A stretch of 64,000 nucleotides of DNA from positions 128,001 through 192,000 of the IMG/VR virus record IMGVR_UViG_3300013121_000033; one strand, written 5' to 3'. The translations under genes and the position numbers were made by a program. The number at the start of each line of letters is the position of its first letter. Positions within the stretch are counted from its first letter, which is position 1. Under the pieces are notes generated by a model that was not told the origin of the DNA, searched no databases, and saw only the letters and a list, made by a program, of their open reading frames with translations. Source of the stretch: a virus. Lineage: Duplodnaviria; Caudoviricetes. Below, in pieces: positions 1-49,454 of the stretch.

Positions 1-240
1 CCACACGTCGTTGTGTCCGTGCGCTTCGAGAAGCGCCTTGACGGTCGGGTAGACGTCGAACTCGCCGGGGCCGATCTTGACCGCTGGGAGGAACCCGAGT
101 TCCCGCCACGTCGGCACATAGATGGACCACAGTCCGCCGTTGTTGATGATCGACGCGATGAGCGAGTCACCGATCCGTGCGGTGGGCGGAGCTTCGTCCT
201 GCTCGGGTAGCCGGAACGAGATGAACGTGTCGTTGTCCAT
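1..240 (-). CDS. hypothetical protein (MDNDTF..., runs off window start)
   Basis: ATG at 240 behind promoter cassette; open frame to position 1. Confidence 0.75.
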   Translation of the reverse strand, partial: MDNDTFISFRLPEQDEAPPTARIGDSLIASIINNGGLWSIYVPTWRELGFLPAVKIGPGEFDVYPTVKALLEAHGHNDVW

Positions 241-278
241 GGCGTCGAACCCTACCCTTGCGTTGTGGTCACGTCAAC
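238..278 (-). promoter_or_regulatory. MDND promoter cassette copy 1
   Basis: GTTGACGTGACCACAAC, TTGACG-17nt-TAGGGT, 8 nt to ATGGACAACGAC. Confidence 0.85.
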
Positions 279-328
279 GCTTCGGAAAGTCGGGCGGTGG
301 GGTTGACTCGGGTGGTACCGTGGCCCTC

Positions 329-376
329 GTGCGTTCCCGTCTCCAACAGCGTCGCTGGCCTCAGCCACCGCTCTAG
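329..376 (+). CDS. leaderless leader peptide MRSRLQQRRWPQPPL of Pro/Trp/Gln tRNA operon
   Basis: TACCGT -10 at 316-321, GTG 7 nt later; Gln/Trp/Pro-rich; 351-376 pairs with 443-469. Confidence 0.75.
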   Translation: MRSRLQQRRWPQPPL

Positions 377-488
377 CTCCACCGGAACGCGCCCAAGATC
401 ACCCGAGCGTCCCGGCGGAGCGGAAGCCCGCACGGGGCTCTCTTGGAGTGGTGGCCGAAGCCAGCCGACAAGGGACCCCCGGACACCA

Positions 489-564
489 CGGGGTGTAGCC
501 CAGCGGCCAGGGCACCTGCTTCGGGAGCAGGGGATCGGGAGTTCGAGTCTCCCCACCCCGACCA
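489..564 (+). tRNA. tRNA-Pro(CGG)
   Basis: cloverleaf, loop TTCGGGA, GTTCGAG T-loop, encoded CCA. Confidence 0.95.
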
Positions 565-583
565 GGTCGCCCCACCGAAACGA

Positions 584-656
584 AGGGGTGTAGCTCAGCG
601 GCGAGAGCAGCGGCTTCCAAACCCGCGTGTCGGGGGTTCGAATCCCTCCACCCCTG
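584..656 (+). tRNA. tRNA-Trp(CCA)
   Basis: cloverleaf, loop TTCCAAA. Confidence 0.92.
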
Positions 657-660
657 CTGA

Positions 661-733
661 TGGCCCGTAGTTCAACTGGCGGAACGCCCGACTTTGGATC
701 GGGAGGTTGCAGGTTCGAGCCCTGCCGGGCCAG
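661..733 (+). tRNA. tRNA-Gln(TTG)
   Basis: cloverleaf, loop CTTTGGA. Confidence 0.93.
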
Positions 734-1132
734 CTACACCGACGCTGCGCGTGCGCGGTCGTTCTCGTGGGTGACGTCGCAGGCGGGGCACTGGCCTTCG
801 GGTTTGATGTCGCGGGTCAGGTGGTTGTGGCGGGTCGGGTCGACCCTGCCTTGGATCGAGATGGGGACGGCGCTCTTGAGGAACGAGAGCAGCTTCGCAG
901 CGGTGTGTTCCATGTCGCTGACGCTGCGCCTCTCCTCGATGTCTATGGACAGGCGGCGGGCCTTGCGGAACGCGGCACCGAGGGACGCCATGTCGAGGGC
1001 GCCGTGGACGACGACGTTGCGGCCGAGGGGGGCGTCACCGGGGTCCTCGTTGATCGCGGCGGCCAGGTCGCGTGGCGACCAGGGACCGGGGTCGTCGACC
1101 TCGATGAGCAGGATGCGGCGGGGCTTGTCCAT
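734..1132 (-). CDS. hypothetical protein (MDKPRR...)
   Basis: TAACGT -10 8 nt upstream of ATG 1132; C-terminal CPAC. Confidence 0.65.
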   Translation of the reverse strand: MDKPRRILLIEVDDPGPWSPRDLAAAINEDPGDAPLGRNVVVHGALDMASLGAAFRKARRLSIDIEERRSVSDMEHTAAKLLSFLKSAVPISIQGRVDPTRHNHLTRDIKPEGQCPACDVTHENDRARAASV

Positions 1133-1143
1133 GGGCGGTGACG

Positions 1144-1404
1144 TTACAGGTCCGGGTCGTCCACTGCGCCGCCTTCCCATGAGGCGATGTCGGATGCGAC
1201 GTCGAACAGTCCCATGGCGACGTGGTCGGAGACGTTCGGGGTGTGGTAGTGGGTTGTGTAGTAGGTGGAGCCGTCCGGCATCACCCACGCTGCGATCACG
1301 GCGTAGTCGCCGAGCAGGCCATCCTCCGGGGTGGTGCCGTAGGCGGCGGCGTGGTTGACGATCGCGGTGCGGAGCGCTTCGTCGACGATCGGCTGCTCAT
1401 CCAT
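1144..1404 (-). CDS. hypothetical protein
   Basis: ORF with GC3-rich codons; TAGCGT -10 just upstream. Confidence 0.7.
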   Translation of the reverse strand: MDEQPIVDEALRTAIVNHAAAYGTTPEDGLLGDYAVIAAWVMPDGSTYYTTHYHTPNVSDHVAMGLFDVASDIASWEGGAVDDPDL

Positions 1405-1442
1405 CCGCAGGGACGCTAGCGGCGGTCGACTAGAACGACGGG

Positions 1443-2432
1443 ATGGTCAACCACGTCATCTATCACGGCGGCTGTGTCGACGGGTTCACAGCAGCGGCGC
1501 TGCTCCGCCAGGTGTACCCGTATGCCGTCTTGCACGCCGCCCGGTACCAGGAGGCGCCGCCTGATGTGTCCGGCGAAGTCGTGATCGCCGATTTCTCGTA
1601 TCCGCCCGCCGTGCTCACGGAGATCGCTGCTCGACCGAACGTCGACCGGGTCACGATGCTCGACCACCATCAGACCACCCGCGATCAGATCGCCGAGCAG
1701 GGCATGCCGGAAGGGGTTGACGTCGTTCTCGACATGGACCGGTCCGGGGCGCGGATCACGTTCGACTGGCTGCGCGACGTCCGAACCGCTGACGTCGCGT
1801 TGTCGGGGTCGGGGGTCGCCGGGTGGGAGACACTGGTCGACTACGTCCAGGACCGGGACCTCTGGCGGTTCGCTCTCGACGATTCCCGTGAGGTGACGGC
1901 GTACATCAACGCTGCGCCGATGACGTTGGACCGGTGGGCGGCGCTCGCTGTCGAAGTCCGCGACGAGCACGACATCGTGGTGCGATGCGGGCAAGCGGTC
2001 CTCGACAGGAACCGGGTGCTGCTCGACCAGATGCGCGAGACGGTCGCTGTCGCGGAGATCGGCGGGTTCCCTGTGCCGGTCACGGCGTCGCCGTACGGGC
2101 TCGGCTCTGACTTCGCTGGTGAGGTCGCAGCGACGTCACCGCACGGGATCGGCGGCTACTACATCGACTACCCGGGGTTCCGGCAGTTCGGGCTGCGGTC
2201 CACCGACACCGGCCCCGACGTGCAGGCGATCGCCCGGACGTTCGGCGGCGGCGGCCACGTCCACGCCTCCGGATTCAAGATCGACCGGGCCACGGGCCAC
2301 CCGCTGCTCGCCGACTTCCACGCTTACGGCGGCGGGAGCGGCGGTGGCGGCGGTGGCGTCGGCGGGAGGACGGGCAGCGGCGTCGGCGGGAGGACGGGCA
2401 GCGGCGGGTCGAGCTACGCGAACCTCACCTAG
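1443..2432 (+). CDS. DHH/DHHA1-family phosphoesterase (nanoRNase-like)
   Basis: YHGGCVDG, DFSY, LDHH, DRDLW and FGGGGH motifs. Confidence 0.9.
   Translation: MVNHVIYHGGCVDGFTAAALLRQVYPYAVLHAARYQEAPPDVSGEVVIADFSYPPAVLTEIAARPNVDRVTMLDHHQTTRDQIAEQGMPEGVDVVLDMDRSGARITFDWLRDVRTADVALSGSGVAGWETLVDYVQDRDLWRFALDDSREVTAYINAAPMTLDRWAALAVEVRDEHDIVVRCGQAVLDRNRVLLDQMRETVAVAEIGGFPVPVTASPYGLGSDFAGEVAATSPHGIGGYYIDYPGFRQFGLRSTDTGPDVQAIARTFGGGGHVHASGFKIDRATGHPLLADFHAYGGGSGGGGGGVGGRTGSGVGGRTGSGGSSYANLT
2355..2402 (+). repeat. 24-bp tandem repeat x2 encoding GVGGRTGS
   Basis: GGCGTCGGCGGGAGGACGGGCAGC twice. Confidence 0.85.
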
Positions 2433-2599
2433 GCCGCGACGGGGACGGAGGTACGGCGTCCGAGCGGCGGGCTCTCCGTGCCGTCGGCGTACACGAGGAC
2501 GACGTGGCTGCCGTCGACGAGGACGTCGATCACGAGTCTCGGGCCGTGCCGGGTGAGGACGACGTCGCCGGGGTCGATGAGCCAGGCGCGGCGAGTCAC
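2429..2599 (-). CDS. small hypothetical protein (MTRRAWLIDPGDVV...)
   Basis: GTGA overlap with helicase stop; 56 aa; absent from ORF track. Confidence 0.65.
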   Translation of the reverse strand: MTRRAWLIDPGDVVLTRHGPRLVIDVLVDGSHVVLVYADGTESPPLGRRTSVPVAA

Positions 2600-5500
2600 C
2601 GGAACAACGGGATGACGTTGCCGCCATCATCATCGCCTTCGTCGGGTTCGGCGGGCGTCGTAGGGATCGGTTCCCCCGCCTGTTCCAACACGGCACGAGC
2701 GAGCATCTTGACGCGGTCGGCGTCGACCTCCATGAGCGGCGTGATCCGCTCGATCGACGGGTCCTCGATCGGTTCCGCCTGCTGCTTCTTCACTCCCAAC
2801 ACCTCGATCATCGGCAGGTCGGACCCGACATCGGACGTAAGGAAGTACGCGAGGACCGGATGGTTCTCCTGACCGGGCCGATTCAATCGGCCAATGCACT
2901 GCGCATGCATCGACGGTGTCCAGTCGAGTTCGCCGAACACGCCGACGTGGCAGACGTCTTGGAGCCCGTTGAGCCCGGCACCGGACCGCAAGCTCATGAT
3001 GAACACGGCGGAGCCGCCTTCGTTGTTCGGGCGGCGGAACCTGTCGAGAGCGTCGCGTTTCTGTGTGTCCGACTCTGCACCAGTGAACTTGACCGGCCGA
3101 TGCTTCGCCAACCGTTCCATCCAGATGTCGTAGCACGCGTGGTGCCATCCCCAGAGGACGACTTTGTCGACCGATTCGAGTAGTAGCTCAACGAACGCTG
3201 CGACGTATGGGGCCTTCGCGATGCCGGTTGCTTGGCGGAGGCGGACGTCCAACTCGCCTGCGGCCTGCCACCGGTCCGTCGTGGGTGTCTCTTGGGAGAG
3301 GATGAACCGGGCGAGTTCCGCGGCGTTGCCGGAGAGTTGGTCGTAGACGTCGATGTCGTGGTCGACGACCTGTTCGATGCGGAGCGGTTCGATCCCGGGG
3401 AGTTTCACCCCGACCATGACCCCGGAGTCCCGGAGGAACGAACCGAGCGCAGCGGGGTTGGCGACACGGGGCTTGCCGCCGTAACTCGACCCGCACCATT
3501 CGCGCAGGAACTCGTGTCGTTCGCCGAGCGCGTCGGGGCGGACGATGCTGTAAATCTCCCAGAGGTCGCCGCCGTAGTTCGTTACTGGTGTCGCGGTGTT
3601 GTGGACGAGCACTCCGTCAGCGACGAACGAGGGGTGTCCTACCATCTCTAGGTCGTACACCACGTCCGGGCTTTCGAGGTCGGCCTCAACTGAGCGGACA
3701 GCGGCTTCTTTGAGCTTGTTTCGCCCCCAGTCGTATCTGACTCGGTTACCTCGCCAACCGAAATTGTCGCCGGACTCGGCATGCGCTGACCAGTTGACTG
3801 AGAACGCGTTTCTTGTCCCTACGATCTTCCGTCCATGGGCGTCAGCCCCGCCCGCTCCTGTCCCGGTCCGGCAAGACAGGCTGCCTTGGGCGCCCAAGCT
3901 TCGGAGCAGGCTGAGCAGGGACGTGGCGAGGGGTTTCGAGACGGTCGTGTAGTACCGACGACCGTCTCGACCCACACTGCCGTCGCTATCAACCAGTCCT
4001 CGGAGTAGTTCGCGACGAGCCGTTTCGGGCCACGAGATGATCCACTCACCTGGGATGAACTTGTCGTAGCAGTTGGCGCCTCTGGTCGTGCGGCGCAGCA
4101 TCTCGGAGAACAGAGGATGACTGAATCGCACTTCGACGCTTCGGCCGTTGCCCGGCCGCAACTTGGGTTCGAGGGCGACATGTGGCAGGTTGGCGACCAT
4201 GTCCATCATGTGCTCAGCAAGGGCGTCCTCGACGGCGAGCCCGACGCGGGTGCCGTCCAACCAGCCGTCGCCGAGGTAGAAGCCCAAGAGGTAGGCCCAG
4301 TCGCTCAAGTTCACAGATGCGGCGATCCATCGGTGCCCCCGACCGATGCCCTGGTATGCGCCGGTCGGCGGAGGGAGAAGTGCCGCATGTTGGCGGTAGA
4401 TGTCGGCTGGCAGACGGGGGCCGAACTTGGCTTCTTTGTGGAAGTTCTGCCATTGCCACGCTGTGACGCCGATGTCGTGTCGGGTGATACCAGCGGTGTC
4501 GACGACGACTTGGCCTCGGACGAGGTCGGCAGCAAGGTCGGCGAAATCGAAGGGCTGTTCCGCTACGGCAGCCCAGCCGTTCCCGTCGTCGCCAGCGAGC
4601 CGGTCCCCGGGGGTGAGCCCGTCAGCGCGGACAAGGTCGAGCCCGCGAGCGGCAACGCGGTACACAGAGTGTTCATCGGTGAGCGTAAGGCGACCACTCG
4701 GAACGCGGAGCGTCGTCGTGGTGGTGTCGCACCGGTGGCGGAGGAAGGTGCGAACTGGCTTCCAGCCGAACCTCTCCCCAGTCCACCCCCGCGACCTGAC
4801 ATCAAGGTGTTCCACTCGAAACAGTTCGTGGATGCCCCAACATTCTGGCGCCACTTCTTTCGCCACAAGTCGCGTCGCTTCCTCGATAGTCCCTACCCAC
4901 CCCGTGCCGAACGGACCACCTATCATCTCGACCACGCTGTCTGGACCGACGCTCAGGCCGACGACGTAGTTGGCTTTGTCGGCGATCGTCGCGGCGGCGG
5001 TGCCTTTCACGGTCGAGGTGCCGTTGCGGAGTTCCTGGACTTCGTCGAACACGACGGAACGGATCGCCCCTGCGAGATGCTGCGACCAGCCGCCGAGCTT
5101 CGAGTAGGTCGTGACGTACACGTCGGGTGGCCGGACGTGGCGTCGTCCGAGCCGGGTGCGCATCGGGTCGTACGGTGTGCCCTTCGTGACGACGTGGACG
5201 TGGAAGTCGGGCCACGTCGCCTTGATCTCGTTGTACCACTGGTGTTGGAGGTGGGGGGCGGCGACCACCAGGCCGGGGAGGGCGTCCGGGTTCCGGAACG
5301 TGAGCGACCCGCTATAGGACTTACCGGCTCCGAGTGAATCGGTGATGAGTAGCCGCTTGACGACCGAGACGATGTCGGCGTTCGTCCGCTGGTGATCCCA
5401 TCGTGGGGCGCGGGCCGGGATGCGGAAGTCGCCGTCGACGGGGTGTCCAGCGAAGATCGAGACGATCTGGTCGCCGATCCATCGTTGCCGGTCGGCTACC

Positions 5501-19630: not shown

Positions 19631-20280
19631 CAGTTGTGGACCATGAGGACGTTCTTGAGGACGGCGCAACGGGGAGGTGGGATCGAGGATGCCATGACGT
19701 CCTCGATGAAGTCGCCGTCGCTGTTGGCGTCGAGGTTCCGCCAGCCGACCCGCTTCGCGATGCGGGAGGTGACGACGAGCGATCCGGCGTCGCAGCGGTT
19801 CCGCTTAGGGGCCACTTGGAGTACGGAGTAGGCAGGGTCGCTCGGCCGGTTGATCCGCTCGTAGTTGTGGACGCACGGGAAGATGACGAGTTTCGCTCGG
19901 GTCCTGTCGAACGCATCGAGGACAAACTCGACGTAGCGCGGCATCAGATAGTTGTCGGCGTTCTGTGTGGCCCAGAATGCGGTGGTGGTCGCTGCGATGC
20001 CGTGGCGGCGGAGGCTGTGCCCCCAGTTGTTGTGCCGTTCTGGTGTCTCGGCGTATGCGAAGTGTTCGGGGTAGCGGTCGGCGTAGGAGCCGCAGATGAG
20101 CCGCGCCCGCGGGTCGGGGCCGTCGTTGATGAGGTGCGCAAACCAGCGGTTGTCGGTCTGCAACAGCAACGAGTTCACGATGATGTGCCACTCGGCTTCG
20201 AACCCGTAGCCGACGACGGTGATGGTGATGCGGGCGCCGTCTGGGGCTGGGGGGAGCCCCAGGGTGTCGTCATCGGTCAT
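19630..20280 (-). CDS. glycosyltransferase (GT-A fold)
   Basis: INDGP, WGHSLR, NADN, SDGDF, VHN. Confidence 0.8.
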   Translation of the reverse strand: MTDDDTLGLPPAPDGARITITVVGYGFEAEWHIIVNSLLLQTDNRWFAHLINDGPDPRARLICGSYADRYPEHFAYAETPERHNNWGHSLRRHGIAATTTAFWATQNADNYLMPRYVEFVLDAFDRTRAKLVIFPCVHNYERINRPSDPAYSVLQVAPKRNRCDAGSLVVTSRIAKRVGWRNLDANSDGDFIEDVMASSIPPPRCAVLKNVLMVHN

Positions 20281-21020: not shown

Positions 21021-21262
21021 GAGTCGTCACCGCTCATGATGCGGGCCAGGAAGGCGGGGTCGAGGTGGGCGAGGCGGCGCAACGCCCTCGTCTGGTAGTA
21101 GACCCGGATCGCGTTGAACGCCGCGGTGACGGCGAACAGTTGGGTCGGGTCGGAGAGCGGGGCGTCGTCGCCGTCTGCTTCGACCTGGTCGAACAGGGCG
21201 AGTGCTGCGGCGTTGAGGCCGAGGCACATCTGCCGGACCTTGAAGTCGTTGTCGTCAGACAT
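21017..21262 (-). CDS. hypothetical protein
   Basis: short ORF in operon. Confidence 0.6.
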   Translation of the reverse strand: MSDDNDFKVRQMCLGLNAAALALFDQVEADGDDAPLSDPTQLFAVTAAFNAIRVYYQTRALRRLAHLDPAFLARIMSGDDS

Positions 21263-21484
21263 CGGGTTCCTCGTAGGTGGAGTCGATCAGGTCGTCGGCC
21301 TGGTGGCATGGTCCGCAACGGCGCCGCGTCGCCGGTTCGTCGCTGCTGGTGGGCCGGTACATGTGGCCGCAGGATAGGAACTCGACACCGGTCGACTGGG
21401 ACACGACGTCACGCCACGGTGCGAGCAGCGGCCGGGCGAGGGGGAGGGGGTCGTCGTGGCCGGTGGGTCGTCGGCGGCGGGCGG

Positions 21485-23215
21485 TCACGGGAACAGGTTG
21501 GGGTGGGCGGCGACTTCGTTGCCGTCGGTGACGGCGCAGTCGTTCGACACGAGCCGCGACAGGTACGTCCCGAACGTGCCGCCGCTGCGGGCGACGCCTG
21601 CGGCTTCGGCGAGTTCGTCGCGGGTGACGTAACGGGGATAGACGTCGACGAGGTGGTCGAACATGCGGAGCGCGCCGCCGGAGAACCTGGCACGCCAGAA
21701 GTCCTGTAGCTCGGCGGCGGACTTGGGGGGGCGTCGGCCGCCTGCGGCTTCGAGCCCGGCGTCGGTGATGTCGACCTTGTCGCCGTCGACGGTGACGTAG
21801 CCGCTCGTGCGGAGCCGCGACAGGTAGGTGCCGAACGTGCCGCCACGTTTCTTGAGCCCGGCTTGGGTGGCGAGTTGGCTGCGGGTGAGGCCGTTGGGCC
21901 ACTCGGCGAGCGCTGCGAGCATGCGGCCTTCGCCGCTCGATTCGTTGATGCGGGCGGGGGGCCGTTCCGCGGGGGCGGCGGGAACCGGTCGCGGCCGTGG
22001 CCGCGGCGGGGCAGACGCGGCTGGTGCGGTGGTGTGCTCATTGAGCTTGCCGAGCAGTCGGGTCGCTTCCACCTGTGCGTTCGCAGCTACCCCGACGGCG
22101 TCCTCTGCCGCCTTCGCTGCCGCTGCGGCGTAGTCGGAGGCCCTGGTGGCGCACTCCCGCAACTCGTCGGCAGCGATGGTGACCCAGTCGGGAACGACCT
22201 CTCGCACCTCGACCTCGGTGCTCGGGGCGGCGGCCGAGAGCAGCGCTTCGAGTTCGGCGACACGGCGTCGGAGCGCCTTCGGGTCGTCCTGTTCGGCTTC
22301 GGCTCGGACGTCGGACAGCAACGTCTCGATCTCGTCGAGGTCGATCTTCGCGGTTGACCGGGGCGCTGCCATCTTGCCGAGCGTCGGGGTCGCGCCCGAG
22401 TCGAACGTCGATCGGCGTCGCCACTGGACGCGGAACGAGCGGCCGAGGAACCCGGGTGACAGCACCCACGCTTCGCCGGGGGCGAGGGACGACAACGACG
22501 CCTTGACCTCGGTGCGGAACGCCGGGTCGTCGACCCAGTCGGAGACTGCGTTCTTGTCGTGCGGGGAGGTGGTGCGGTGCAGGATCAGCGTCTCGGTCTG
22601 TGAGAGCGCGTCTTTCGACACGGACGCGGACCGTTGGGTGACGAGCGTGACGCCGAGGCCGAAGCTGCGGCCCTGCTTGGCGAGCTTCGCGTACATGCCG
22701 ATCATCGCCGGGACTTCGCCGCCGCCGCGTTCGCGTTGCACCTGCGGAAGGAACTCTTCGGCTTCTTCGAGGAACAGGTGCAGCGGTTGGGGGGTGCGGT
22801 GGCGGATCAGCTTCCACAGTTCGCGTGCGAACGCGGTGACGAACCGGACCTGGTCGGCCTTCGTGTCGAAGTCGGAGACATCGAGGACGCAGGTCATGTT
22901 GCGTTCGACGACGAGACGGGCCATGAGCGGCCCGGCCGCGGGGGTGAGGGGGAGGTCGCCGTGGAGGCCGCCGAACACGGGGACGGGGAGGCCGGGGCGG
23001 TCGCCGTCGGAACGGATGCCGTGCCAGTCCCCCTTGGGGTCGATCGCGACCCACGGGATGCCAGCAGCGTGCATCTCTTCGGCGAGCACGACCGCGGTCG
23101 AGGACTTGCCAGCGCCGCGTTTCCCGAGGATGGCGAACGTCTCGGTGGCGGCCTCGTCGGGCAGTGTGAAGTCAGGGGCGACGTGGAGCGGCATCACGAA
23201 CCTTGTGTTGGGCAA
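21485..23215 (-). CDS. HerA/FtsK-like (DUF87/DUF853) ATPase with tandem C-terminal winged-HTH repeats
   Basis: GKRGAGKS, IDPKGD, LEEAEEF, GRSFG, TQR; GGTFGTYLSRL twice. Confidence 0.85.
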   Translation of the reverse strand: MPNTRFVMPLHVAPDFTLPDEAATETFAILGKRGAGKSSTAVVLAEEMHAAGIPWVAIDPKGDWHGIRSDGDRPGLPVPVFGGLHGDLPLTPAAGPLMARLVVERNMTCVLDVSDFDTKADQVRFVTAFARELWKLIRHRTPQPLHLFLEEAEEFLPQVQRERGGGEVPAMIGMYAKLAKQGRSFGLGVTLVTQRSASVSKDALSQTETLILHRTTSPHDKNAVSDWVDDPAFRTEVKASLSSLAPGEAWVLSPGFLGRSFRVQWRRRSTFDSGATPTLGKMAAPRSTAKIDLDEIETLLSDVRAEAEQDDPKALRRRVAELEALLSAAAPSTEVEVREVVPDWVTIAADELRECATRASDYAAAAAKAAEDAVGVAANAQVEATRLLGKLNEHTTAPAASAPPRPRPRPVPAAPAERPPARINESSGEGRMLAALAEWPNGLTRSQLATQAGLKKRGGTFGTYLSRLRTSGYVTVDGDKVDITDAGLEAAGGRRPPKSAAELQDFWRARFSGGALRMFDHLVDVYPRYVTRDELAEAAGVARSGGTFGTYLSRLVSNDCAVTDGNEVAAHPNLFP

Positions 23216-26359: not shown

Positions 26360-26449
26360 ACATGGCAGAGCCTCCGTCACCCCGTGGGGATCAGGAGGCT
26401 CTGCCCGCCGTGTCTATTTGGTATGAGGATGGCAGGCGTTCCTGCCAAG

Positions 26450-26525
26450 TGGCACGAGGGGGATTCGAACCCCCGACCTCCGGGTTATGAGCCCGGCGAG
26501 CACAACCAGACTGCTCCATCGTGCT
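26450..26525 (-). tRNA. initiator tRNA-fMet(CAT)
   Basis: loop CTCATAA, GGG/CCC in anticodon stem, 1:72 mismatch. Confidence 0.92.
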
Positions 26526-26562
26526 CCGACGGATGATAGCGGTTCCGTCACTTCGTCACTCG

Positions 26563-28852: not shown

Positions 28853-28888
28853 CGCACCAGCCTACCGCGGCGTTGACGTCACGTCAAC
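28850..28888 (-). promoter_or_regulatory. promoter cassette copy 6 (fully palindromic box)
   Basis: GTTGACGTGACGTCAAC...TAGGCT...ATGGTCAACGAC. Confidence 0.85.
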
Positions 28889-28943
28889 GCTCGGAAAGTG
28901 ATTGACGAGGGTTGGGGGAACCCGGCAAGGTGGATACCTCAAT

Positions 28944-36687: not shown

Positions 36688-36725
36688 ATCGCTAACTGTC
36701 ACACCTCCTGGTTACCGTCTCGGCG

Positions 36726-37124
36726 ATGCCCTACAAAGACCGCGAGGCGCAACGCGCCTACCAGCGTGAGTGGATGGCGCGCCGTCGCCGCGAGTGGATC
36801 GAGGCTCACGGCCCGTGTGTCGACTGCGGGTCGTGGACCGACGACCTGGAAGTCGACCACGCCGATCCCGCTTCGAAGGTGATGAATCCCACGTTGGTCT
36901 GGTCGCGACGAGCCGCAGTCCGCGACGCCGAGTTGGCGAAGTGCGTCGTCCGCTGCCACAACTGCCATCTCCGCAAGACATCTCATGAGCGGGCACCTCA
37001 GCACGGAACGGACAACATGTACGGCAAACACGGTTGCCGCTGCGATCCATGCCGAGCGGCTAGGGCGAGGGCTAAGAAGGCGAATCGTGACAGACGGAAG
37101 GCGTTGGGCCTAGCCCGCCAGTAG
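36726..37124 (+). CDS. HNH endonuclease inside tRNA operon (antisense)
   Basis: CVDC...LEVDH...CVVRCHNCH; leaderless TACCGT promoter. Confidence 0.88.
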   Translation: MPYKDREAQRAYQREWMARRRREWIEAHGPCVDCGSWTDDLEVDHADPASKVMNPTLVWSRRAAVRDAELAKCVVRCHNCHLRKTSHERAPQHGTDNMYGKHGCRCDPCRAARARAKKANRDRRKALGLARQ

Positions 37125-37143
37125 ACGGCCTAAACGCCTAATC

Positions 37144-39270: not shown

Positions 39271-39342
39271 AGCGCCCCCCGGGAGTCGAACCCGGTTTCC
39301 ACGCTTTGCAGGCGCAGCCCTCGCCGTCCGGTGCCGAGGCGC
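39271..39342 (-). tRNA. tRNA-Cys(GCA)
   Basis: loop CTGCAAA, U73; atypical D arm. Confidence 0.85.
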
Positions 39343-39349
39343 ATCGCTA

Positions 39350-39404
39350 CCTTCGACCTCACCCTTATCAGGGGTGCGCTCTAAACCTGCTGAGCTACCT
39401 GCCG
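39350..39404 (-). pseudogene. truncated tRNA-Ile(GAT) (no T arm or 3' acceptor strand)
   Basis: intact D arm and CACCC-CTGATAA-GGGTG, then AGGTCG with no TTCGA. Confidence 0.8.
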
Positions 39405-49373: not shown

Positions 49374-49406
49374 GAGAACTTGCGGGGTCGCGCGTGACGT
49401 CGCCGT

Positions 49407-49454
49407 CTAGCTCGACCCCTCGGGGGAACTCGATGACAGCGACGAACGGATCAC
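49407..49454 (-). CDS. leaderless leader peptide MIRSSLSSSSPEGSS of tRNA-Ser operon
   Basis: TATCGT -10 at 49462-49467; 8 of 15 codons Ser. Confidence 0.8.
   Translation of the reverse strand: MIRSSLSSSSPEGSS

Follow-up and report, generated by a model that had tools for sequence, protein, structure and literature searches.

The nearest published mechanism to the one that we propose here is that of the mycobacterial leaderless poly-Cys short ORFs (the "Cys ribulon"; Canestrari et al., bioRxiv 10.1101/834739), in which a stalled ribosome keeps an RNA duplex from forming. The leader that precedes a tRNA-Pro/Trp/Gln operon in a 225-kb phage resembles this attenuator in having a leaderless short ORF at the predicted transcription start, a GC-rich setting, and a duplex with downstream sequence that a stalled ribosome would block. 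It differs in that three amino acids rather than one would be sensed, and in that the downstream genes are tRNAs, so that there is no ribosome-binding site for the duplex to hide. The classical attenuators (trpL, hisL, pheL, thrL, ilvL, and pheM of pheST) likewise have a short 5′ ORF containing the sensed codons, part of which lies inside an RNA structure that a ribosome can mask, and thrL and ilvL sense several amino acids at once. In contrast to the phage leader, they regulate enzymes or synthetases rather than tRNA genes, and they employ codon runs where we find one to three codons per tRNA; the phage leader would moreover be a leaderless mRNA, and neither a U-tract terminator nor a clear terminator/antiterminator pair was found in it.

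A second comparison is with Caulobacter phage phiCbK (NC_019405.1), an independent lineage, where codon-matched short ORFs (19782–19844, 21241–21378, and 23042–23140 in the numbering of piece L016 of NC_019405.1) precede three tRNA blocks and cover 10/10, 8/8, and 2/2 of the downstream tRNAs. Each of these leaders is then followed by an annotated, obvious U-tract terminator, whereas the ORFs themselves are either annotated only as a hypothetical protein (gp335, in one case) or unannotated. phiCbK and the 225-kb phage are similar in size, GC content, and tRNA count, and they share the arrangement of a promoter, an ORF covering every downstream tRNA, and a tRNA block; one phiCbK leader has TAGGGT followed by 7 nt and ATG, a spacing shared with the leaders of the 225-kb phage. 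The strong U-tract terminators located between ORF and tRNA in phiCbK have no counterpart in the leader described here, which instead has a long duplex between the ORF and downstream sequence. No sequence similarity was detected between the phiCbK leaders and those of the 225-kb phage.

T-box riboswitches, too, are leaders that act in cis and sense the state of one particular tRNA, but they bind the tRNA directly, are untranslated, and regulate synthetase and amino-acid genes, whereas the signal here is specific to one reading frame. RNase III sites are long processing stems found on either side of rRNA or phage early RNAs; their duplexes exceed 20 bp and contain small internal mismatches. The phage leader is similar with respect to the presence of a duplex of at least ~20 bp (23 bp, predicted) beside stable RNA genes, although RNase III stems are not part of a codon-matched ORF. 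The leader design is not universal, since in Mycobacterium phage StAugustine only 69 nt separate the 12-tRNA array from the protein gene before it, too little to accommodate a leader of this kind.

The window that we analyzed is a 64,000-nt stretch comprising bases 128001–192000 of the virus record IMGVR_UViG_3300013121_000033, which is 225,159 bp long, rated complete, and 68% GC; positions are those of the window unless stated otherwise. The phage has 26 tRNA genes in ~8 clusters across its genome. Judged from sequence identities, its proteins are only distant kin of those of cultured phages: the DHH phosphoesterase is 34%–35% identical to counterparts in phiCbK-like Caulobacter phages, and the helicase ~43% identical to Arthrobacter and Gordonia phage helicases. 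Searches of IMG/VR with the neighbouring proteins, the helicase, and DNA patterns from the leader and tRNA junction found no relatives carrying the leader; a tRNA-Pro pattern found none in JGI metagenomes, and the 140-aa protein encoded upstream has no homologue among 5.8 billion proteins. Alignment of the DHH protein within IMG/VR gave relatives at ≤32% identity only. A 210-kb contig (JAWVHA010000179.1) encodes a DHH protein that is 51% identical, and no tRNA genes were found in the part of it that was examined (19.5 to 79 kb).

The tRNA-Pro, tRNA-Trp, and tRNA-Gln calls are real, with ARAGORN and Rfam in agreement. The 140-aa gene upstream of them is divergent (start at 240, minus strand), and the 132-aa gene downstream is convergent, its stop codon abutting tRNA-Gln, which leaves the three tRNA genes as an isolated transcription unit that requires its own promoter. 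Bases 316–488 most likely constitute the promoter and translated leader of this operon, with transcription predicted from motif spacing to start at ~329. The features of the locus are as follows.

238–266, minus strand: leaderless promoter and start of the divergent 140-aa gene, ACAACG-N6-TAGGGT-N8-ATG (sequence motif)
316–321, plus strand: −10-like hexamer TACCGT (TAnnnT) with TGG at 313–315 before it, the predicted tRNA-operon promoter (from sequence)
329–376, plus strand: predicted leaderless 15-codon leader ORF, GTG to TAG (374–376), peptide VRSRLQQRRWPQPPL (ORF reading)
344 (CAA), 347 (CAG), 356 (TGG), 362 (CAG), and 368 (CCG), plus strand: cognate codons of the leader ORF (wobble rules)
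351–375, plus strand: 5′ arm of the long duplex, wholly inside the ORF (codons 8–16; RNAfold)
376–421, plus strand: hairpin A, 13 bp (376–390/407–421), beginning from the last base of the stop codon (RNAfold)
422–443, plus strand: hairpin B, 8 bp (422–429/435–443), then a pyrimidine-rich CUCUU tail (RNAfold)
444–469, plus strand: 3′ arm of the long duplex (RNAfold)
470–488, plus strand: spacer before tRNA-Pro, C-rich and without U (from sequence)
489–564, plus strand: tRNA-Pro(CGG), without an encoded CCA (ARAGORN and Rfam)
584–657, plus strand: tRNA-Trp(CCA) (ARAGORN and Rfam)
661–734, plus strand: tRNA-Gln(TTG) (ARAGORN and Rfam)

The GTG at 329 is positioned 7 nt after TACCGT, and the promoter sequence GGTACCGT is common to this leader and to those of a Gln/Glu/Glu and a His cluster. 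A genome-wide analysis identified 35 long, high-GC3 ORFs headed by TAnnnT, 6–8 nt, and ATG or GTG (20, 4, and 11 ORFs at spacings of 6, 7, and 8 nt, respectively, with 0–2 at most other spacings), which implies that leaderless mRNAs are standard in this phage. GTG, the start codon of the Pro/Trp/Gln leader, is used by only 2/35 of these leaderless long genes, which counts against the leader. The gene for tRNA-Met begins 7 nt after a TAnnnT of its own, without an ORF, and so supports the predicted start-site distance. The more restrictive pattern TANNNT-N7-RTG occurs at just 20 sites in the 225 kb, both strands included: 12 head genes of at least 96 codons, 5 precede tRNA clusters, and 3 head other short ORFs.

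The leader ORF ends 112 nt before tRNA-Pro. Its reading agrees with the original prediction of three Gln codons (CAA, and CAG twice), one Trp codon (TGG), and three Pro codons (CCT, CCA, and CCG), and each of the three downstream tRNAs (3/3) has a cognate codon in it. Cognate codons account for 5/14 of the non-start codons, compared with 8%–9% expected (binomial p ∼0.004–0.006), and for 0/13 and 1/13 of the codons in the other two frames. Among the genome's length-matched short ORFs, 0.6% attain the cognate share of the leader and 2.4% cover all three tRNAs. Taken alone, the statistics of this one leader are moderate (p ∼0.002–0.02).

A short ORF with the same geometry (−10 hexamer, 7 nt, start codon) also precedes four other tRNA clusters.

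Gln(CTG)/Glu/Glu cluster: leader peptide MLRRREHRERTGRRPQRQV, coverage 3/3 tRNAs
His cluster, then Asn/Arg/Lys/Lys/Arg: leader peptide ending in AARRKRRRGLRHRNPAGA, coverage 6/6 tRNAs
Phe/Thr (three genes)/Arg(CCT)/Asp/Gly cluster: leader peptide MRSTLTIRTFPTAGPRGITDTTGIGGGRCR, coverage 7/7 tRNAs
Ser/Ser cluster: leader peptide VIRSSLSSSSPEGSS, coverage 2/2 tRNAs

Together the five leaders contain an in-frame cognate codon for 21/21 downstream tRNAs, whereas the other two frames cover 5/21 and 9/21; cognate codons number 38/110 in frame versus 6/105 and 20/105 out of frame. The chance product for 21/21 is ∼1e-7, by simulation and from empirical short ORFs alike, or ∼2e-6 if the His leader is scored for His only. 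When leaders and clusters are paired in all 120 permutations, full coverage is obtained in one, the true pairing. Five of the phage's tRNA genes (Met, two Ala, and two Val) have no leader, a point against the sensor reading. The promoter geometry and the cluster-specific coverage at four further clusters argue for the earlier proposal that the Pro/Trp/Gln ORF is a translated leader reporting on its three tRNAs, and the observation itself is confirmed as real and far from chance in its genomic context.

Local alignment (p = 0.003) identifies the Pro/Trp/Gln and Gln/Glu/Glu leaders as paralogues. They align in the promoter, at the end of the ORF with its stop codon, and over half of hairpin A (the first half, with its start TAG-CTCC..CCG.AACGCG); the pairwise alignment has a 12-nt gap and coinciding stop codons. 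The codons that differ between the aligned paralogues (CAA/GAA, TGG/CGG, and CCG/CAG) are those by which each leader matches its own tRNAs. The peptide is not conserved, as fits a sensor in which the identity of the codons matters and that of the peptide does not. The Gln/Glu/Glu leader keeps the ORF and lacks the long duplex. A weaker similarity is observed between the Ser/Ser and Phe/Thr leaders (p = 0.05).

RNAfold predicts that 351–375 and 444–469 pair in a 23-bp duplex (mean pair probability 0.96), which encloses hairpins A and B and ends 19 nt before tRNA-Pro. A stem of ∼26 bp (351–376 with 443–469) around two inner hairpins had been proposed for this region and is recovered here in this somewhat shorter form. 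The folding of the element 350–470 is significant (z = −6.7; 0/200 dinucleotide shuffles fold as well), but the opposite strand folds the inverted repeat at least as well, so the fold alone is no proof of a role in plus-strand RNA, and strand-specific G-U pairs in the repeat are too few to decide the strand. The 3′ arm of hairpin B holds CACGGGG, a copy of the 5′ junction of tRNA-Pro, which at 7 nt is not significant by our own estimate.

This three-way junction could serve as a signal for processing, or could be a stable non-coding RNA made in the same transcript as the tRNAs, with the ORF having no sensing role. Small stable RNAs are included in the tRNA cluster of phage T4; a near-perfect 23-bp duplex folding this well is a plausible substrate for a double-strand RNase, it folds whether or not the ORF is translated, the DNA repeat itself is symmetrical, and no terminator was found. 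Even so, we consider such a role unlikely, since it leaves unexplained both the in-frame, cluster-specific codon match at five clusters and the exact geometry of −10 hexamer, 7 nt, and start codon. An Rfam search of 1–5000, up to E = 1, returned the tRNAs and two weak chance matches only, with no T-box, ribozyme, or other known RNA family; the leader element has no second copy in the genome and is not a repeat or mobile element. Moreover, the paralogous Gln/Glu/Glu leader is without the long duplex yet has an ORF.

Leaderless starts are the default of this phage, and the short ORF might accordingly be translated merely as a result of how its promoters are built, with no regulatory consequence and with the codon match as a side effect or weak adaptation. 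Folding tests of the Pro/Trp/Gln leader, which yielded no demonstrable output mechanism, are compatible with such passive translation. However, tRNA-Met directly follows its TAnnnT by 7 nt, so an ORF is not obligatory at such promoters; coverage of 21/21 tRNAs with a unique best pairing is improbable as a side effect, and phiCbK couples ORFs of the same kind to terminators. We therefore regard an ORF without consequence as decidedly unlikely.

It is more improbable still that the triplets act without ribosomes, through pairing of the leader RNA with anticodon loops or other parts of the tRNAs in the manner of a T-box specifier, either to sense or to chaperone them. Reading by eye, CCGAAGC (455–461, in the 3′ arm) complements GCUUCGG of the tRNA-Pro anticodon arm, and the spacers of three other leaders are significantly complementary to the 5′ strand of their first tRNA. 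For the Pro/Trp/Gln spacer, the original prediction of partial complementarity between 475–488 and the 5′ end of tRNA-Pro holds to the extent that 5-nt complements are present, but they are at chance level, with a duplex energy that does not surpass that of shuffled spacers (p = 0.31). Enrichment of cognate triplets is confined to the frame of the start codon, which argues for reading by a ribosome and not for direct RNA pairing; in addition, there is no match to a T-box or another Rfam family, and no significant similarity between leader and tRNA in sense or antisense. A derivation of the leader from tRNA sequence was rejected on the same comparison. Coincidence of a chance short ORF with a chance inverted repeat in GC-rich intergenic DNA is the least probable explanation: Pro and Arg codons are common at 68% GC and the p values of this leader alone are just ∼0.002–0.02, but the family-level value is ∼1e-7, the stem has z = −6.7, and 5/20 TANNNT-N7-RTG sites lie directly before tRNA clusters.

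Our preferred reading is that a ribosome-gated duplex makes the leader a decoding sensor for the Pro/Trp/Gln operon. We judge this reading to be well supported, with a probability of roughly 70%. Transcription would start at or beside G329, and the RNA, with GUG at its very 5′ end, would be translated in leaderless fashion. The codons read would be CCG for tRNA-Pro(CGG), UGG for tRNA-Trp, and CAA/CAG for tRNA-Gln(UUG). Slow decoding would hold the ribosome on 344–376, covering 351–375 while the polymerase makes 444–469, such that the 23-bp duplex would be blocked and the 3′ part would adopt another fold. With fast decoding, the ribosome would leave at the UAG (374–376) when the polymerase still has ∼70 nt to go to the 3′ arm, and the three-way junction would then be closed by the duplex. 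The two folds would then set the yield of mature tRNA from the operon, providing feedback on decoding capacity. All of the cognate codons (344–370) lie in or just upstream of the 5′ arm, and a ribosome stalled at any of them would thus be expected to prevent the duplex, as had been claimed. Of the original interpretation as a whole, the sensor idea is supported, whereas the spacer pairing with tRNA-Pro and the assumption of termination versus read-through are not.

With respect to the latter, no U-tract or canonical terminator was found on the plus strand of 329–488, nor was a clear terminator/antiterminator pair, and so the terminated and read-through RNAs envisaged in the original prediction are an assumption. 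Within 20 kb of the window taken as a sample, U-tract terminators show no enrichment (4 versus 7.6 expected). Hairpin B, even with its CUCUU tail, is no more than a weak terminator candidate, for which no convincing antiterminator was found. Folding with the 5′ arm masked predicts that the 3′ arm joins an alternative hairpin (∼432–480), which uses the 3′ arm of hairpin B and the spacer and replaces hairpin B; being made from sequence transcribed after hairpin B, it cannot pre-empt that hairpin. Premature termination, hairpin-only or factor-dependent, is nevertheless a reasonable candidate for the output step, to which we give somewhat less than even odds; such termination would be expected in a host tolerant of poor U-tracts. 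We consider it only slightly less probable that the folds control how the precursor is processed or folded, e.g. through access for RNase III or RNase P, and an output of some other kind is less probable again.

We also used footprint-masked folding to test a relay model: unless a ribosome stalls, the spacer would keep the 5′ acceptor strand of the first tRNA hidden. The model is rejected for 316–733: ΔΔG is +2 to +5 kcal/mol in all states, and the predicted accessibility of the tRNA-Pro acceptor strand does not depend on the ribosome. The masked folding that had been suggested as a check thus gave an alternative hairpin at ∼432–480, but pairing between spacer and tRNA-Pro was unchanged by ribosome position. 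The His and Phe/Thr leaders did not fit the relay model either, whereas the Gln/Glu/Glu and Ser/Ser leaders fit it in silico, with a shift of 3–7 kcal/mol toward the acceptor stem on early stalls. A more general scheme for this lineage would be a paralogous family of leaderless "test" ORFs, diverged in codon content for each tRNA operon and without a canonical terminator, in which a ribosome-gated long-range duplex decides the fate of the precursor (folding, processing, or hairpin-only termination). This scheme is speculative, and in so complete a form we think it unlikely.

Phage tRNA genes are usually seen as passive supplements to codon usage, or as spares against host defences that cleave tRNAs, and a literature search found no paper on leader-peptide control of tRNA genes. 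If the leader samples each codon served by its operon, the phage would measure decoding capacity and adjust its tRNA supply block by block, raising a given set of tRNAs only when the corresponding codons are read slowly, e.g. upon depletion of host tRNAs or cleavage by a defence nuclease. Ribosome-mediated attenuation, known for amino-acid and synthetase operons, would then extend to tRNA genes, and the leader would provide a compact natural means of sensing how available individual tRNAs are. Beyond examples of the phiCbK type, the locus adds an architecture that has a duplex and no terminator, in a GC-rich lineage with many leaderless genes, and a case of leaders that are paralogous yet diverge at the codons for the tRNAs that each precedes.

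Several further observations concern the sister leaders. A clean switch is predicted when the Ser/Ser (49374–49454, minus strand) and Gln/Glu/Glu (piece L019:293–390, minus strand) leaders are folded under constraint: a ribosome stalled at the early cognate codons lets the first tRNA form its acceptor stem (probability 0.9–0.98), whereas the 5′ strand of that tRNA is sequestered by the leader if the RNA is naked or the ribosome has reached the stop codon. The Ser leader contains both a 9-nt copy and an 8-nt complement of the 5′ end of tRNA-Ser. In the His cluster, a Cys-rich, HNH-like 132-aa gene lies antisense between tRNA-His and the Asn/Arg/Lys/Lys/Arg block (36688–37143; start at genome position 164726, plus strand). 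No promoter motif was found before tRNA-Asn, and the His leader is rich in Arg, Lys, His, and Asn codons, so this leader may serve all six tRNAs, possibly by read-through of the inserted 132-aa gene.

Just past tRNA-Gly(CCC) of the Phe/Thr cluster is a tRNA-like stretch (39272–39397, minus strand) that scores 28.5 bits against the Rfam tRNA model, the threshold being 29. It comprises an Ile-type anticodon arm (GAT), a 61-nt insertion, and a T arm; ARAGORN with relaxed settings proposes a tRNA-Cys(GCA) on the same T arm. The Phe/Thr leader includes ATC three times and TGT once, and the Ile-type and/or Cys stretch may therefore be a functional member of this operon.

With respect to promoters, many of the 35 long leaderless ORFs have one of a phage-wide class, ACAAC(A/G)-N6-TAGGGT-N6-8-ATG. 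Its ACAACR element is only ∼6 nt from the −10 hexamer, unlike a normal −35 element. Most tRNA leaders have GGTACCGT but no ACAACR, and their temporal class may be a different one. The tRNA-Met gene (26449–26540, minus strand) starts exactly 7 nt past the hexamer TATCAT, and its transcript may begin at the mature 5′ end, as a "leaderless tRNA" for which RNase P would not be needed. Finally, both plus-strand tRNA clusters have a common block upstream (260–308 and ∼28880–28925, the latter at genome position ∼156880–156925). The block consists of a palindrome (GCGTTG...GTCACGTCAACGC) followed by TCGGAAAGT and then TTGAC, and overlaps the divergent leaderless promoter at its CAACGC element; this shared block may be a binding site for a regulator.
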